Shown here: piece after piece, positions 1 through 5,140 of the stretch
Position numbering within the stretch: the first letter of the stretch is position 1
Layout of the letters: each line of letters opens with the position of its first letter
Origin: a virus
Taxonomy: Duplodnaviria; Caudoviricetes
Length of the DNA: 45,754 nt
Direction: 5' to 3' (one strand)
IMG/VR virus record: IMGVR_UViG_3300015370_000003
Coordinates: 1-45,754 of that record
Program-made: the position numbers and the translations under genes
The notes under the pieces: generated by a model
Seen by the model: only the letters and a program-made list of their open reading frames with translations
Databases searched by the model: none
What the model was told of the DNA's origin: nothing

Positions 1-123
1 AAGGAAAAAACAAGCCGAACAAATAAATAATATATAATTTTATGTTAAATAAGTGGATTAATACAATTCAATGCGGGGATTCCGAAGAATTATTAAAACA
101 ACTGCCTGAAAATTCAATAGACT
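1..123. repeat. Terminal direct repeat / circular assembly overlap (copy at 45632-45754)
   Basis: Bases 1-123 are identical to 45632-45754; the end of ORF 45282..45668 and the start of the MTase run through the join. Confidence 0.95.
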
Positions 124-2708
124 CTGTTGTTTGCGATCCTCCTTACGAACTGGGATTTATGGGTAAAAAATGGGATAACACAGGAATAGCTTATAGGGTA
201 GAATTATGGCGCGAATGTTTAAGAGTGTTAAAGCCTGGTGGACACTTATTATCCTTTGGAGGCACAAGAACCTATCACAGAATGGCAGTAGCTATTGAAG
301 ACGCAGGGTTTGAGGTGAGAGATATGATTGAATGGGTATATGGTTGCTTGTCAGAAGATACAGAAATATTGACTGAAAGTGGCTACAAGCCCTTGCGTAA
401 ACTCACACAATATGATAGAATAGGGGTATATGATATTACAAACAACATTTACAAATGGGAAAGACCGCAAAGGTATAGTGTCTATAAAGTCCACCAAGAT
501 ACCGCTTACCGAATTAAATCAGATTACACAGACCAAATTGTCAGTAGAAACCACCGTTGCCTTGTTGAACGAGAAGGAAAACTTGTATTCATTACCGCAG
601 AGGAACTCAATGAAGTGGAGTATATGCCGACATTGTCAGAAGATTTTTATTCATTACAGGAAAACTCAAATAGGAAACTATTGCTCAAAGAGTTGTTGTG
701 GAAAGGCAAAGGATTGGCTAAAAAACTATTCAGCAAATGGACTGGGGAAAAAATGTCCGAGCAAAGGATTGAAGTTAGAAAAGAACCCAGCTTGGAAAGG
801 TGGAGTAACTTACTGGAGGAAACACGGAAACTACAAGCCGATAAAATATGTGAGGTGTCCGAAGGAGTTTTTACCGATGGCGAGAAAAGATGGATATGTA
901 ATGGAACATCGTTTGATAATGGCTCAATTCTTGGGAATATGTTTAGAGAGAACCCAAGTAGTGCATCATATCAATCACGACCCACAGGACAACCGACTGG
1001 AAAACCTGATGTTATTTCAATCAAACAAGGAACACAAATTACACGAAGGGCGAGAGTTGAGAAAATTGAATACTCAGGCATAATCTTTTGCCCGACTGTT
1101 TCAACAGGGGCTTTTATTGCTCGTAGAAATGGGCAAGTGTTTATTACTGGGAATAGTGGCTTTCCAAAAAGTTTAAATATCGGGAAAAAAATAGACCAGT
1201 TGCAGGGGAATGAGAGGGAAATAACTGGAGAAAATCCTAATTATAGACCAGTATCAGGCAAAGAAGGATATTTAGGCGAAAGTAATTTTAGACAAACAGA
1301 TGGAATGAGTATATCCACCAAAGGAACTTCCGAATGGGAAGGCTGGGGAACTGCGACCAAGCCCGCACACGAACCTATCTGTATGGCACGAAAGCCCCTA
1401 TCAGAAAAGACAGTAGCCGAGAATGTTCTTAAATGGGGAACAGGTGGAATAAATATAGATGAGAGTAGGGTGGGGACAGATGGAGGAACTGCAAAAGGAA
1501 CTTTTCCAAATGAAGATAGTAATGGTATTTATGGCAACGGATTTAATGGTGCTTGTGAAATAAAAGATATTGGTATGGGTCGCTTCCCTGCCAATTTGAT
1601 ACTTTCAGCAGATGAAGACGGACAAGTCAGTGAAGAAGTAAGAGAGTGTTTTCCTGAAACTAATACTCACGGAGGCGGAAAAGTTAAAATACAAAAAGGG
1701 CATTGGTTAAAAGGTGGTTATATTGATTATGATAAGTTAAATAGATACCAAAACGACTCAGGCAACGCCAGCAGATTTTTTCGGGCTATTCCACAAGTGG
1801 TTGACTATAATGATTTTTTAATATACAATAGAAGTATATTAACTAACATTAAACAACTATGTGGACAACACTCAACAAAAAAGAAAACAGATATTATTTT
1901 GGATGGCGTAATAAAGGAAGCCGAAAAGTTTATACAAGACGCAGAGCTTCTTATATTTGGGAACAGCAAAATGGAAAAGTTCCTGACGGATACTGCATCC
2001 ACCACAAAAACCTTGATAGCACAGATGACCGAATTGAAAACCTTGAATGTATTACCAAGCTGGCTCATTATGAAATTCACGGAAGATTACGAGAAGACCA
2101 TAAAATTATTAAAGGAATTGAACACCGAAGATGTCAAAAATGCCGAGAGTATAAACCACTTAATTGCTTTCAAAAGAGAAATGCTGGAACTTATCAGGGA
2201 TATTGCAAGGAATGTAGTTATGGGGAACTCCGAAAATGGCAAATTGAAAACAGAGAACGAGTCAACGCTTACGCCAGAGAATACCAACGAAAACATCAAA
2301 AAGAATATAGGAAAAGAAAAAAACTTTAAATCAATAATATATCAAGCAAAGGCAAGTAAGAGCGAGCGGAATAAGGGGTGTGAGGGGTTGGAGGAGAAAG
2401 TAAAAGTGTTCAATGGGCAATCTGACAAACCAAGTGAAGATATGAAAGATGTAGAGAAAAGATTTACTACACTGCCAAAAGCCAACAACCATCCGACCGT
2501 AAAACCAATCGCCCTTATGGAATACCTTATCAAAATGGTAACTCCTAAAGGTGGAATAGTATTAGACCCCTTTGCAGGTTCAGGCTCAACATTAGTTGCC
2601 TCTAAACAAAATGGTTTTCAGTATATTGGAATAGAATTAGATTTTGAATACTGTAAAATAGCGGAAGCAAGAATTAAAAGCATTAAAAAACAACAAACTT
2701 TAATATAA
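42..2708 (+). CDS. DNA amino-methyltransferase (N6A/N4C, beta class) interrupted by an intein and a second in-frame insertion
   Basis: N-terminal DPPY motif; C-terminal HPTVKP...VLDPFAGSGST; the typical phage MTase segments WVYG/SGFPKS and ASRFF/YQAKAS are each split by an insertion. Confidence 0.95.
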   Translation: MLNKWINTIQCGDSEELLKQLPENSIDSVVCDPPYELGFMGKKWDNTGIAYRVELWRECLRVLKPGGHLLSFGGTRTYHRMAVAIEDAGFEVRDMIEWVYGCLSEDTEILTESGYKPLRKLTQYDRIGVYDITNNIYKWERPQRYSVYKVHQDTAYRIKSDYTDQIVSRNHRCLVEREGKLVFITAEELNEVEYMPTLSEDFYSLQENSNRKLLLKELLWKGKGLAKKLFSKWTGEKMSEQRIEVRKEPSLERWSNLLEETRKLQADKICEVSEGVFTDGEKRWICNGTSFDNGSILGNMFRENPSSASYQSRPTGQPTGKPDVISIKQGTQITRRARVEKIEYSGIIFCPTVSTGAFIARRNGQVFITGNSGFPKSLNIGKKIDQLQGNEREITGENPNYRPVSGKEGYLGESNFRQTDGMSISTKGTSEWEGWGTATKPAHEPICMARKPLSEKTVAENVLKWGTGGINIDESRVGTDGGTAKGTFPNEDSNGIYGNGFNGACEIKDIGMGRFPANLILSADEDGQVSEEVRECFPETNTHGGGKVKIQKGHWLKGGYIDYDKLNRYQNDSGNASRFFRAIPQVVDYNDFLIYNRSILTNIKQLCGQHSTKKKTDIILDGVIKEAEKFIQDAELLIFGNSKMEKFLTDTASTTKTLIAQMTELKTLNVLPSWLIMKFTEDYEKTIKLLKELNTEDVKNAESINHLIAFKREMLELIRDIARNVVMGNSENGKLKTENESTLTPENTNENIKKNIGKEKNFKSIIYQAKASKSERNKGCEGLEEKVKVFNGQSDKPSEDMKDVEKRFTTLPKANNHPTVKPIALMEYLIKMVTPKGGIVLDPFAGSGSTLVASKQNGFQYIGIELDFEYCKIAEARIKSIKKQQTLI
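393..421 (+). promoter_or_regulatory. sigma70-type promoter inside the intein coding sequence, upstream of nested HNH-1
   Basis: TTGCGT(393-398)-17 bp-TAGAAT(416-421) with extended -10 TG; ATG at 430 lies about at the predicted start site. Confidence 0.6.
430..1083 (+). CDS. HNH homing endonuclease overprinted in the +1 frame of the intein (start 430 or 610)
   Basis: CRHC...YCSKSC Zn finger, KNPAWKGG motif, GYVMEHRL...VHHINHDPQDNRLENL HNH core; lies entirely within the intein. Confidence 0.88.
   Translation: MILQTTFTNGKDRKGIVSIKSTKIPLTELNQITQTKLSVETTVALLNEKENLYSLPQRNSMKWSICRHCQKIFIHYRKTQIGNYCSKSCCGKAKDWLKNYSANGLGKKCPSKGLKLEKNPAWKGGVTYWRKHGNYKPIKYVRCPKEFLPMARKDGYVMEHRLIMAQFLGICLERTQVVHHINHDPQDNRLENLMLFQSNKEHKLHEGRELRKLNTQA
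1782..2327 (+). mobile_element. In-frame insertion (~182 codons) without intein motifs, carrying nested HNH-2; boundaries approximate
   Basis: Separates ASRFF from KSIIYQAKASKSER; contains a promoter and an HNH ORF whose stop (2327-2329) coincides with the right edge. Confidence 0.75.
1801..1829 (+). promoter_or_regulatory. sigma70-type promoter for nested HNH-2
   Basis: TTGACT(1801-1806)-17 bp-TACAAT(1824-1829), about 30 bp before ATG 1859. Confidence 0.75.
1859..2329 (+). CDS. HNH endonuclease overprinted in the +2 frame of the MTase
   Basis: YIWEQQNGKVPDGYCIHHKNLDSTDDRIENLECI HNH core; C-terminal CQKC...YCKEC Zn finger; A-rich leader like other genes here. Confidence 0.88.
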   Translation: MWTTLNKKENRYYFGWRNKGSRKVYTRRRASYIWEQQNGKVPDGYCIHHKNLDSTDDRIENLECITKLAHYEIHGRLREDHKIIKGIEHRRCQKCREYKPLNCFQKRNAGTYQGYCKECSYGELRKWQIENRERVNAYAREYQRKHQKEYRKRKKL

Positions 2709-2740
2709 TAAATAAAACTTAATTTTCCGCTATAGTTAGC

Positions 2741-2783
2741 TGTGGATAACTGCCTTGCAGTGTATTATATTAGCTGGTATAAT
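2741..2783 (+). promoter_or_regulatory. sigma70 promoter with adjacent DnaA box
   Basis: TGTGGATAA (2741-2749); TTGCAG(2755-2760)-17 bp-TATAAT(2778-2783), extended -10. Confidence 0.75.
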
Positions 2784-2805
2784 ACTAATATCAAACAATA
2801 AAAAT

Positions 2806-2940
2806 ATGAACACACCAAATAAAGTTTTCCGAATTTCAGACGCTACATTTAAGCAGTTGAAAAAACTAAAAAAACAAAATAACTCTGAAACTTGGGACGA
2901 TTTCTTTAAAAAATTGATAAAACAATTATGCAAATCTTAA
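2806..2940 (+). CDS. Small ribbon-helix-helix-like regulator (44 aa)
   Basis: KVFRISDATFKQLKKLK...TWDDFFKKLI pattern; first gene after the promoter; ATG 2806 preferred over TTG 2755. Confidence 0.55.
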   Translation: MNTPNKVFRISDATFKQLKKLKKQNNSETWDDFFKKLIKQLCKS

Positions 2941-3094
2941 CTTGGCGCGGTATAAAAAACTTTGACGCTCGGCAACAAAACAAAAAGTTCTTTGATAAAA
3001 TTATAAAGGTCGGCAACGAAATTCTATTGCTTGCATTAATAGCAGGCGAAATTTCAATAATTTACGAATTTATAAAAAATTATTAAAAAACAAT

Positions 3095-3490
3095 ATGACA
3101 AACAAAGAAAAACAAATTGAGTTTCAAAAAAAGTTTGGAGGTGAGATTAAAGGTGATTGGCTGGTTTTTATCGGTGATTTGGATTGCTCTAATAATCAAT
3201 TAACATCCCTACCTGACAATCTTAAAGTTGGTTGTAGTTTGTATTGCTCTAATAATAAATTAACATCCCTACCTGATAATCTTGAAGTTGGCGGTTATTT
3301 TGATTGCTCTGATAATCAATTAACATCACTACCTGATAATCTTGAAGTTGGCGGTGGTTTGTATTGTTCTGATAATCAATTAACATCCCTACCTGACAAT
3401 TTAAAAGTTGGCGGTGGTTTTGATTGCTCTAATAATCAATTAACATCCCTGCCTTATAATCTTGATGTTGGCGGTGAAATTTATAAATAA
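3095..3490 (+). CDS. Leucine-rich repeat protein (5 x 20 aa)
   Basis: Repeats such as LDCSNNQLTSLPDNLKVG; 60-bp DNA repeats at about 3178-3477. Confidence 0.85.
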   Translation: MTNKEKQIEFQKKFGGEIKGDWLVFIGDLDCSNNQLTSLPDNLKVGCSLYCSNNKLTSLPDNLEVGGYFDCSDNQLTSLPDNLEVGGGLYCSDNQLTSLPDNLKVGGGFDCSNNQLTSLPYNLDVGGEIYK

Positions 3491-4537: not shown

Positions 4538-5140
4538 ATGGAAAAAAAATTAAAAATAGAAAAAATAGAATTATATTATTATAAAAATAATGAAAAAATA
4601 GTAACTGATATTAATAATACAGAAACTTATCCAGAAAATATTTCTGGTGATGTAAGTGGAATTTTTGGTAATGTAGGCAGAATTTCTGGTGATGTAGGCG
4701 GAATTTCTGGTAATGTAAGTGGAATTTTTGGTAATGTAAGCAGAATTTCTGGTAATGTAAGCAGAATTTTTGGTAATGTAAGCAGAATTTCTGGTGATGT
4801 AAGTGGAATTTTTGGTAATGTAAGCAGAATTTCTGGTGATGTAGGCGGAATTTCTGGTAATGTAAGTGGAATTTTTGGTAATGTAAGTGGAATTTTTGGT
4901 AATGTAAGCAGAATTTCTGGTGATGTAATTGGAATTTTTGGTAATGTAAGCAGAATTTCTGGTAATGTAAGCAGAATTTCTGGTAATGTAAGCAGAATTT
5001 CTGGTGATGTAATTGGAATTTTTGGTGATGTAAGTGGAATTTTTGGTGATGTAAGCAGAATTTCTGGTGATGTTGATAAATGCGTTATAACAGAAAATGA
5101 TCGCAAAAAAGGAATAAATATTAAAGATTTAATTCAATAA
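4538..5140 (+). CDS. Heptapeptide-repeat (I[SF]G[DN]V[SGI][GR]) solenoid-like protein
   Basis: About 21 tandem 21-bp units at 4640-5074. Confidence 0.75.
   Translation: MEKKLKIEKIELYYYKNNEKIVTDINNTETYPENISGDVSGIFGNVGRISGDVGGISGNVSGIFGNVSRISGNVSRIFGNVSRISGDVSGIFGNVSRISGDVGGISGNVSGIFGNVSGIFGNVSRISGDVIGIFGNVSRISGNVSRISGNVSRISGDVIGIFGDVSGIFGDVSRISGDVDKCVITENDRKKGINIKDLIQ
4640..5074 (+). repeat. 21-bp coding tandem repeat
   Basis: Unit approximately ATTTYTGGTRATGTARGYRGA, contiguous, no unique spacers. Confidence 0.95.

Follow-up and report, generated by a model that had tools for sequence, protein, structure and literature searches.

A likely non-splicing homing cassette with a hidden HNH endonuclease gene in the open frame of a phage DNA methyltransferase gene

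Introduction

For homing nucleases that reside inside genes, rescue normally comes from splicing of RNA or protein; otherwise the host gene is split. A third way, plain read-through, was proposed in 2025 from about ten mycobacteriophages (PMC11855218). According to that paper, the ShiLan domain holds an HNH endonuclease gene in the +2 frame, leaves the host frame open and has no splicing signature; a tolerated loop is proposed, no experiments are described, and the first 11 residues of the insert are similar to the downstream flank. Here we describe an insertion of this kind in a DNA methyltransferase (methylase) gene of the viral record IMGVR_UViG_3300015370_000003 (Duplodnaviria; Caudoviricetes), a complete record with terminal repeats, whose full stretch of 45,754 bases is called the window below. 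The insertion lies at positions 1782..2327 on the + strand, as do all features given here; it is 546 nt (182 codons) long, its methylase frame is open, and the passenger peptide encoded in that frame is predicted to be helical.

Judging from sequence comparisons, we consider it likely that this insert is a mobile, non-splicing homing cassette in a variable loop of the methylase, and that it is translated through as a 182-residue passenger. Nucleases of this kind readily escape annotation, and one can easily take the passenger for a part of the methylase.

Results and Discussion

Empty Alleles Define the Insert

The host gene, the first gene of the window (42..2708), encodes a beta-class N6-adenine/N4-cytosine DNA methyltransferase of 888 aa, counting both of its insertions (PF01555, E 1e-35; phrog_67). 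The original prediction had placed a stop-free insert of 182 codons between the host motifs ASRFF and KSII-YQAK, and alleles that lack the insert (empty alleles) confirm this. Junctions were read from 80 viral loci, the best of 595 in a scan with the preceding host region. Among these 80, 19 have the form ASR[FY]FKSI[IV]Y, the type closest to the window, with the empty form ASRFF-KSII-YQAK, and because such KSII-type alleles define the junctions, the net insert is fixed at 546 nt (182 codons). Across the 72 loci of this set (best 80 of 595) in which the spacer between ASRxx and YxxK could be scored, it was absent in 52 and comprised four residues in 16, 14 residues in one, 145 residues in two, and 174 residues in one; the spacer is thus 0 or 4 residues long in 68/72, and most alleles do not contain the insert. 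In the host frame the insert matched nothing in Pfam below E 0.097, nothing in PHROG, and nothing in the Atlas at 0.9. A region missing from most alleles and without a domain match is not a normal conserved methylase domain, which the original prediction had named as one way in which it could fail.

At the right junction (2325..2351) the host sequence resumes as F-KSII-YQAK, empty-type contigs join at 2324, and the TAA stop of the HNH gene (2327-2329) shares bases with the Phe-Lys codons there. Compared at the DNA level with a KSII-type empty allele, the window departs at 1770 and rejoins at 2325. The left SRFF copy (1770..1781) is written AGC AGA TTT TTT, codons not seen in KSII-type empty alleles; AGn for both Ser and Arg occurs in 0/19 of these and in 4/60 empty alleles overall. 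Since the window DNA departs from the empty allele already at 1770, this left copy may be part of the element and was possibly supplied by it. The host motif is doubled in most filled alleles, with A[SA]R[FY] on the left in 22/22 and an Arg at the matching place on the right in 18/23, and the window's right copy is reduced to Phe. In the filled locus L087, where Ser begins both copies, the right copy has ordinary codons and the left one alternative codons, and in L086 six of the seven codons of the left SRFFKSI are unlike the commonest empty-allele codons while the residues are unchanged.

Two side observations concern this site. The four-residue spacer between ASRFF and YxxK in some empty alleles (L004-L052; L122), which is KSII here and PVFR in ShiLan, could be the scar of an earlier insert. 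In a deleted allele (L002, 2915-3421), a short shared PEN motif is the point at which the N-terminus of the methylase meets the final portion of the passenger; the catalytic half has been lost, as has most of the HNH gene.

The Host Frame Is Kept Open Across an Embedded HNH Gene

The methylase open reading frame (ORF, 42-2708) has no stop through 1782-2327, and this openness is not due to chance. Synonymous shuffles of the window HNH gene gave a mean of 7.0 host-frame stops, with 0/4000 stop-free, and control blocks of 156 codons from other genes of the same phage were stop-free in 0/47 cases. The comparison was extended to 23 filled loci, comprising the window, 11 loci found with host-frame seeds, 10 found with HNH-frame seeds, and L016 from the scan with the preceding host region; a duplicate of L084 (L092) and three copies or near-copies (L097, L099, L100) were left out. 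The host frame contains no stop across the HNH gene in 23/23, against about 107 expected in sum, although the loci are related and not independent, and for GC-rich ones the single-locus chance of an open frame is up to 0.22 (the GC content of DNA with this insert lineage ranges from 26% to 64%). All 23 have the insert at the same site with the host phase restored at the right junction, and in all of them the HNH stop lies at most 28 nt from the conserved Tyr codon. The ASRxx anchor is in frame in all 22 loci with a left flank, with leaders of 12 different lengths between 17 and 89 nt, and the leaders have no host-frame stops, against 35 expected (18 loci). The stop-free, in-phase insert that the original prediction had proposed to look for in homologs is therefore present in the whole set.

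Codon choice in the embedded HNH genes shows the same avoidance. Codons that would form host-frame stops are rare in them (GTA 1/53, ATA 16/130) compared with other genes (122/353 and 275/497, respectively), and nine other AT-rich HNH genes have GTA at 21/59 and ATA at 69/123, with 11-26 stops in the corresponding frame. HNH-frame seed searches found 14 full-length loci, of which 13 are embedded at the ASRFF site; the sole free-standing one (L106) has a closed shadow frame. Conversely, the host frame is open in the 3/23 loci in which the HNH gene itself is interrupted (L089 with a stop at codon 5, L094 and L095 with a late stop). A protein search with a passenger profile, a set biased to open frames, gave 20 longer proteins, all with PF01555, and the passenger was at the same site in 18/19 (one could not be parsed).

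The HNH gene (1859..2329) lies in the +2 frame, starts with ATG, and encodes 156 aa with an HNH_3 match above the cut-off (E 1.7e-13). The protein has the core residues H48, H49, N61, H70, and H74, two CxxC pairs, and a basic C-terminal helix; H48, H49, N61, H74, and four Cys are invariant in 35 HNH sequences, and the wider family comprises 59 matches. The HNH frame is under purifying selection, with a ratio of nonsynonymous to synonymous substitution rates (dN/dS) of 0.20-0.40 in 13/16 pairs with the window, the other three being saturated. Five weak partial matches (L117-L121) were left out of the analysis. A single-query HNH scan found just three partial matches, a genome scan with query A2 found none, and annotated phages contained only distant HNH proteins, none covering 80%. 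In a PDB sequence search, the HNH profile gave only weak SBP zinc-finger matches, taken as a CxxC resemblance.

The remainder of the insert is a short upstream region. A predicted sigma-70-type promoter of the HNH gene (1801..1829; TTGACT-17-TACAAT, 10/12) is followed by an A-rich leader (1830..1858) with no Shine-Dalgarno match, as at most of 18 other gene starts inspected. The original division of the insert into promoter, leader, and an HNH ORF at 1859-2329 that stops at the right junction was thus correct in all its coordinates. A region-wide promoter scan of the window was by itself not above chance (5 found vs. 4.5 expected), so that support for the promoter comes from the homologs. Matches of at least 10/12 occur in 11/22 leaders vs. 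1/106 control windows, and all 11 have a spacer of 17 and a −10 hexamer in the stop-avoiding phase; in the window this hexamer reads Tyr-Asn in the host frame. One filled allele (L110), from a 5.4-kb contig in a genome bin of Candidatus Omnitrophota, has a perfect TTGACA-17-TATAAT together with AGGAGG before the HNH start. Gene starts elsewhere in the window, e.g., 3095, 4538, and 5151, have A-rich AAAAAACAAT-like runs upstream and likewise lack a Shine-Dalgarno match, suggesting a host in which such sequences are not used.

Removal of the Insert From RNA or Protein Is Unlikely

A homing element might also spare its host gene if an unknown intron excised the insert from the RNA, or if ribosomes bypassed it between the repeated Phe codons. 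The repetition of the motif at both ends would suit either process, but we regard both as very unlikely, as selection for an open, in-phase frame would then be pointless. No group I or group II intron was found by Rfam models in window positions 1-3200 or in 13 homologous loci, the sole match being a tRNA, and the group I intron that would have spoken against the original prediction was thus not found in the loci searched. The insert RNA folds no better than shuffled sequences (z −0.83), and the consensus fold is weak, with no conserved structure (−12.3 kcal/mol over 624 columns, two-sided change in 4/38 pairs). Because the HNH ORF fills the insert but for 77 nt before it and none after it, a ribozyme core has no room. 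As for bypass, the gap in T4 gene 60 is 50 nt, far shorter than this insert. Ribosome bypass and precise DNA excision were both discarded, as either would leave the stop-free passenger unneeded. A search of sequencing runs turned up no confirmed RNA run with the window's DNA; the contigs of two runs labeled RNA-Seq are marked as probably DNA, so their joints are those of empty DNA alleles and not splice junctions.

The open frame would be equally required if the passenger were translated and then removed or cut at the protein level, by unrecognized splicing or by loop proteolysis with the halves staying together. The family tolerates pieces, as the methylases of L084 and of ShiLan (gp65/gp67) are split at other loop positions, and Ser starts both motif copies of L087. 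We nevertheless think this unlikely. The Hint domain has no match on the second insert, across 23 loci the sequence preceding the right-hand Tyr is highly variable, the ends are not conserved and no terminal Asn or His is shared, and the predicted fold of the passenger is helical rather than the Hint beta fold. The absence of intein blocks asserted in the original prediction therefore holds.

Thus, three findings that had been named as fatal to the reading of a translated-through, unspliced insert, namely a group I intron, frequent stops in the homologous frames, and a normal methylase domain, were looked for and none was found; the comparisons support this reading at the level of sequence.

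The Loop Site and the Passenger Peptide

The insert lies between the catalytic half and the S-adenosylmethionine (SAM)-binding half of the methylase, a position deduced from solved relatives, in what we take to be the target-recognition region of a beta-class methyltransferase. Spacers of 0, 4, 14, 28, 45, 47, 49, 145, 153, 166, and 174 residues, of unrelated forms, occur at the ASRFF site. Two loci (L018, L029) have another, unrelated hidden nuclease-like ORF at this site, and one protein (P0011, residues ~310-450) has an HNH-like zinc-finger domain there in frame (HNH_2, E 0.001, below the cut-off). The Arg on the left and the Tyr and Lys on the right are invariant in 81/81 aligned proteins, filled ones among them. 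An AlphaFold model was made of P0002, which has no intein and an insert 90% identical to that of the window. In this model the predicted local distance difference test (pLDDT) score is mostly 85-98 for the core, ~48-72 for a passenger of five long helices, and <50 for the linkers.

With a host-frame dN/dS of 0.5-1.2 inside the insert, the passenger shows no strong conservation. This range would also be expected if read-through were selected only to avoid polarity or aberrant products, with the insert-bearing enzyme being dead or weak; in addition, the ShiLan paper terms its methylase non-essential (PMC11855218). Against such a dead enzyme stand the invariant flanking Arg, Tyr, and Lys and the restoration of phase in all 23 loci, the latter relevant just if the C-terminal SAM-binding half is needed, and we hold this explanation to be quite improbable.

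A more elaborate version of the cassette, in which it is a natural home-and-rescue element with a recoded copy of the interrupted motif and the passenger has been selected into a folded helical domain born by overprinting, is possible but doubtful. It builds on the recoding in L086, the five AlphaFold helices, the composition of the passenger in the host frame (Glu, Leu, and Gln enriched, Arg and Gly depleted), and the lower divergence of HNH-frame four-fold sites, which are host-frame second positions, relative to two-fold sites (0.21 vs. 0.26; flanks 0.63 vs. 0.37), although relatedness and an A-rich codon bias weaken passenger signals beyond stop avoidance. The literature on recoded target copies gave nothing beyond engineered gene-drive and general review papers.

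Several further loci of this methylase family carry related arrangements. Single methylase genes with two hidden +2 nuclease-like ORFs are found in L087 (1594-2106) and L018 (2379-3002 and 3666-4115); the first hidden ORF of L087 is at the ShiLan-equivalent TALKP/HEP site, and there, too, a copy of the host motif stands at either end. In L093 (686-1243), L055 (3560-4147), P0012, P0013, P0014, P0022, P0028, and P0032, long in-frame inserts occupy other loop positions; in L093 and L055 the other shifted frame contains an HNH gene. This family appears to be a hot spot for cassettes of this type.

Likely Mobility and a Possible Mechanism

Near-identical cassettes occur in divergent hosts. The identity between the window and P0002 is 47/51/90/83% for the N-part, middle, insert, and C-part, respectively, and that between the window and P0003 is 76/49/91/73%; the host region ahead of the insert is thus 49-51% identical in these comparisons, against 90-91% for the insert. 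The third-position difference was lower in the insert than in the flanks (0.04 vs. 0.58 for L091/L093, 0.13 vs. 0.55 for L088/L090). A contig of run X23 has 38 differences from the window across 1760-2350 and flanks unlike those of the window; none of the 33 listed differences creates a stop in either frame. In a tree of conserved host columns with 19 filled and 58 empty alleles, seven changes between the two states were counted, and a single filled clade was rejected by the approximately unbiased test (p-AU 8.5e-5). This tree omits L086, L093, and L084 (too few columns) and L095 (a near-copy), and supersedes a first tree with eight filled rows, in which no clustering was seen. Both descent and lateral spread are likely to have contributed.

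It might also be supposed that the HNH protein is a domesticated partner of the methylase, restriction-modification-like or a competition nuclease, and not a homing element. Nuclease and methylase travel together, the HNH gene is under purifying selection, and filled hosts cluster. However, near-identical cassettes in widely differing methylases, the prevalence of empty alleles, HNH stops in 3/23 copies, and unrelated HNH genes at the same site (L018, L029, P0011) all argue against domestication, which we consider highly improbable.

Several points weigh against a mobile, translated-through homing cassette. The flanks compared contain variable loops, which inflates their divergence. Filled hosts are more clustered than random (0/500 shuffles were as low as seven changes), so that much of the inheritance is vertical; part of the patchiness could be due to repeated loss. 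The 11 non-window loci from host-frame seeds were found by a method that favors open frames at the seeds. A strong promoter match is missing in 11/22 leaders, and recoding of the left motif copy belongs to the window's clade and is not general, as L084, L089, and L094 have ordinary codons. The left ASRFF copy has a pLDDT <50 in the P0002 model, which is accordingly silent on which motif copy packs on the core. Finally, the HNH model has a pLDDT of 93, and its top Foldseek match, I-HmuI (1u3e), is not significant (E 0.043, template modeling score 0.39).

If the insert is a cassette of this type, a long transcript would be translated into the 888-aa precursor, from which the intein would splice out. 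The resulting 618-aa enzyme would carry the passenger as a loop, with a catalytic core that would still fold, and would presumably be active. The internal promoter would produce a short mRNA for the HNH protein, which, in co-infection, may nick or cut empty alleles close to the ASRFF codons, in the way described for I-HmuI and T4 MobE (PMC2988022). Repair of the cut empty allele would copy the cassette in and bring along another (S)RF(F) motif, which would leave the host motif on both sides of the insert; alternative codons in the carried copy would protect filled alleles from being cut again. By analogy with those nucleases, nicking-based homing is the likely mechanism.

Host Gene and Genome Context

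The methyltransferase motifs DPPY (135-146) and FAGSG (2571-2585) are intact, HPTVKP lies at 2490-2507, and solved structural relatives include DpnA, CcrM, and M.RsrI. The first insertion of the gene (345..1154), a separate finding given here as context for the second, is intein-like (C102-N371, Ser at +1) with a weak Hint_2 match below the cut-off (E 0.01); Hint_2 matched no other part of the gene. Within it, a separate HNH gene occupies the +1 frame (ORF 430-1083, likely start 610; HNH_3 E 5e-10), which fits published out-of-frame intein nucleases, and the intein of ShiLan gp65 is at the same site. An arrangement similar to this intein-like insertion with its hidden HNH gene is seen in L084/L097 and L030. 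The predicted methylase is 618 aa long after removal of intein C102-N371 and 436 aa after removal of both insertions, as had been calculated in the original prediction.

The methylase family is also found in pieces (L084, 3-4128; L122, 4786-8059; P0005; P0007; L018), and in L084 there are two splits, each by a free-standing HNH gene. The halves of split methylases have a recurring short tail (like YILKDNTPKDDIEEIKHLLSI) at the end, and the second half restarts with another tail; these tails may be docking helices. The split position of ShiLan gp65/gp67 is similar to that of these halves. Elsewhere, the window encodes terminase and replication genes and two small repeat proteins (3095-3490 and 4538-5140), one leucine-rich-repeat-like and one of 7-residue G[ND]VSxIx repeats.

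Relationship to Described Elements

HNH genes of the I-HmuI/HNH_3 type have been found in coding regions before, including T4 mobA in gene 60, Aeh1 mobE in nrdA (PMC2988022), and the intron-borne I-HmuI. These systems break the host frame or use a group I intron, whereas the host frame of the window is continuous and contains no intron core. Inteins with out-of-frame or antisense homing endonucleases (bioRxiv 10.1101/2025.01.02.630785) resemble the window more closely in having the nuclease in another frame and the host frame open; they remove the passenger by a splicing domain, which the second insert of the window does not have. Pacc40 gp60, as described in PMC11855218, likewise has an out-of-frame nuclease-like ORF in an open methylase frame and free-standing relatives elsewhere (here L106), but according to that paper its methylase is divergent and the site is another one.

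The closest described system is that of ShiLan, whose gp65 (Gosselin et al. 2023, PMC9957025; Arsenault, Gosselin, and Gogarten 2025, PMC11855218) belongs to the same methylase family as the window's (BLASTP E 2e-32). The two share the +2 offset, the open host frame, the stop at the right junction, the lack of an intein or intron signature, the patchy spread, and copies of the host motif that flank the insert on both sides at the protein level. They differ in the insertion site, which in ShiLan is TALKP/xEP, 134 residues before ASRFF, with ShiLan being empty at ASRFF, and in the nuclease, as the two HNH proteins can be aligned over the HNH core alone (19/57 identical, pairwise E 1e-4). The window also has a 77-nt leader with a promoter match and an ATG start, whereas ShiLan has a GTG start 18 bp into the insert, and leaderless translation was proposed for it. 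The ShiLan resemblance named in the original prediction thus stands for the design and the host family, and does not extend to the insertion site or the nuclease; the window insert is a hidden HNH insertion of the ShiLan type, not the ShiLan element itself.

No paper on this site or lineage was found in a literature search with most subscription journals outside its scope. The principle was already published in 2025, and the window represents a separate lineage at a new site. The accessible part of the ShiLan paper (PMC11855218) contains no test of stop avoidance against a null, and the independent lineage described here lends its read-through proposal quantitative support: stops are purged, the phase is kept with leaders of many lengths, and the host frame stays open even where the nuclease has decayed. 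With natural empty and filled alleles and a compact cassette of 546 nt, it offers a clean test case for homing without splicing.

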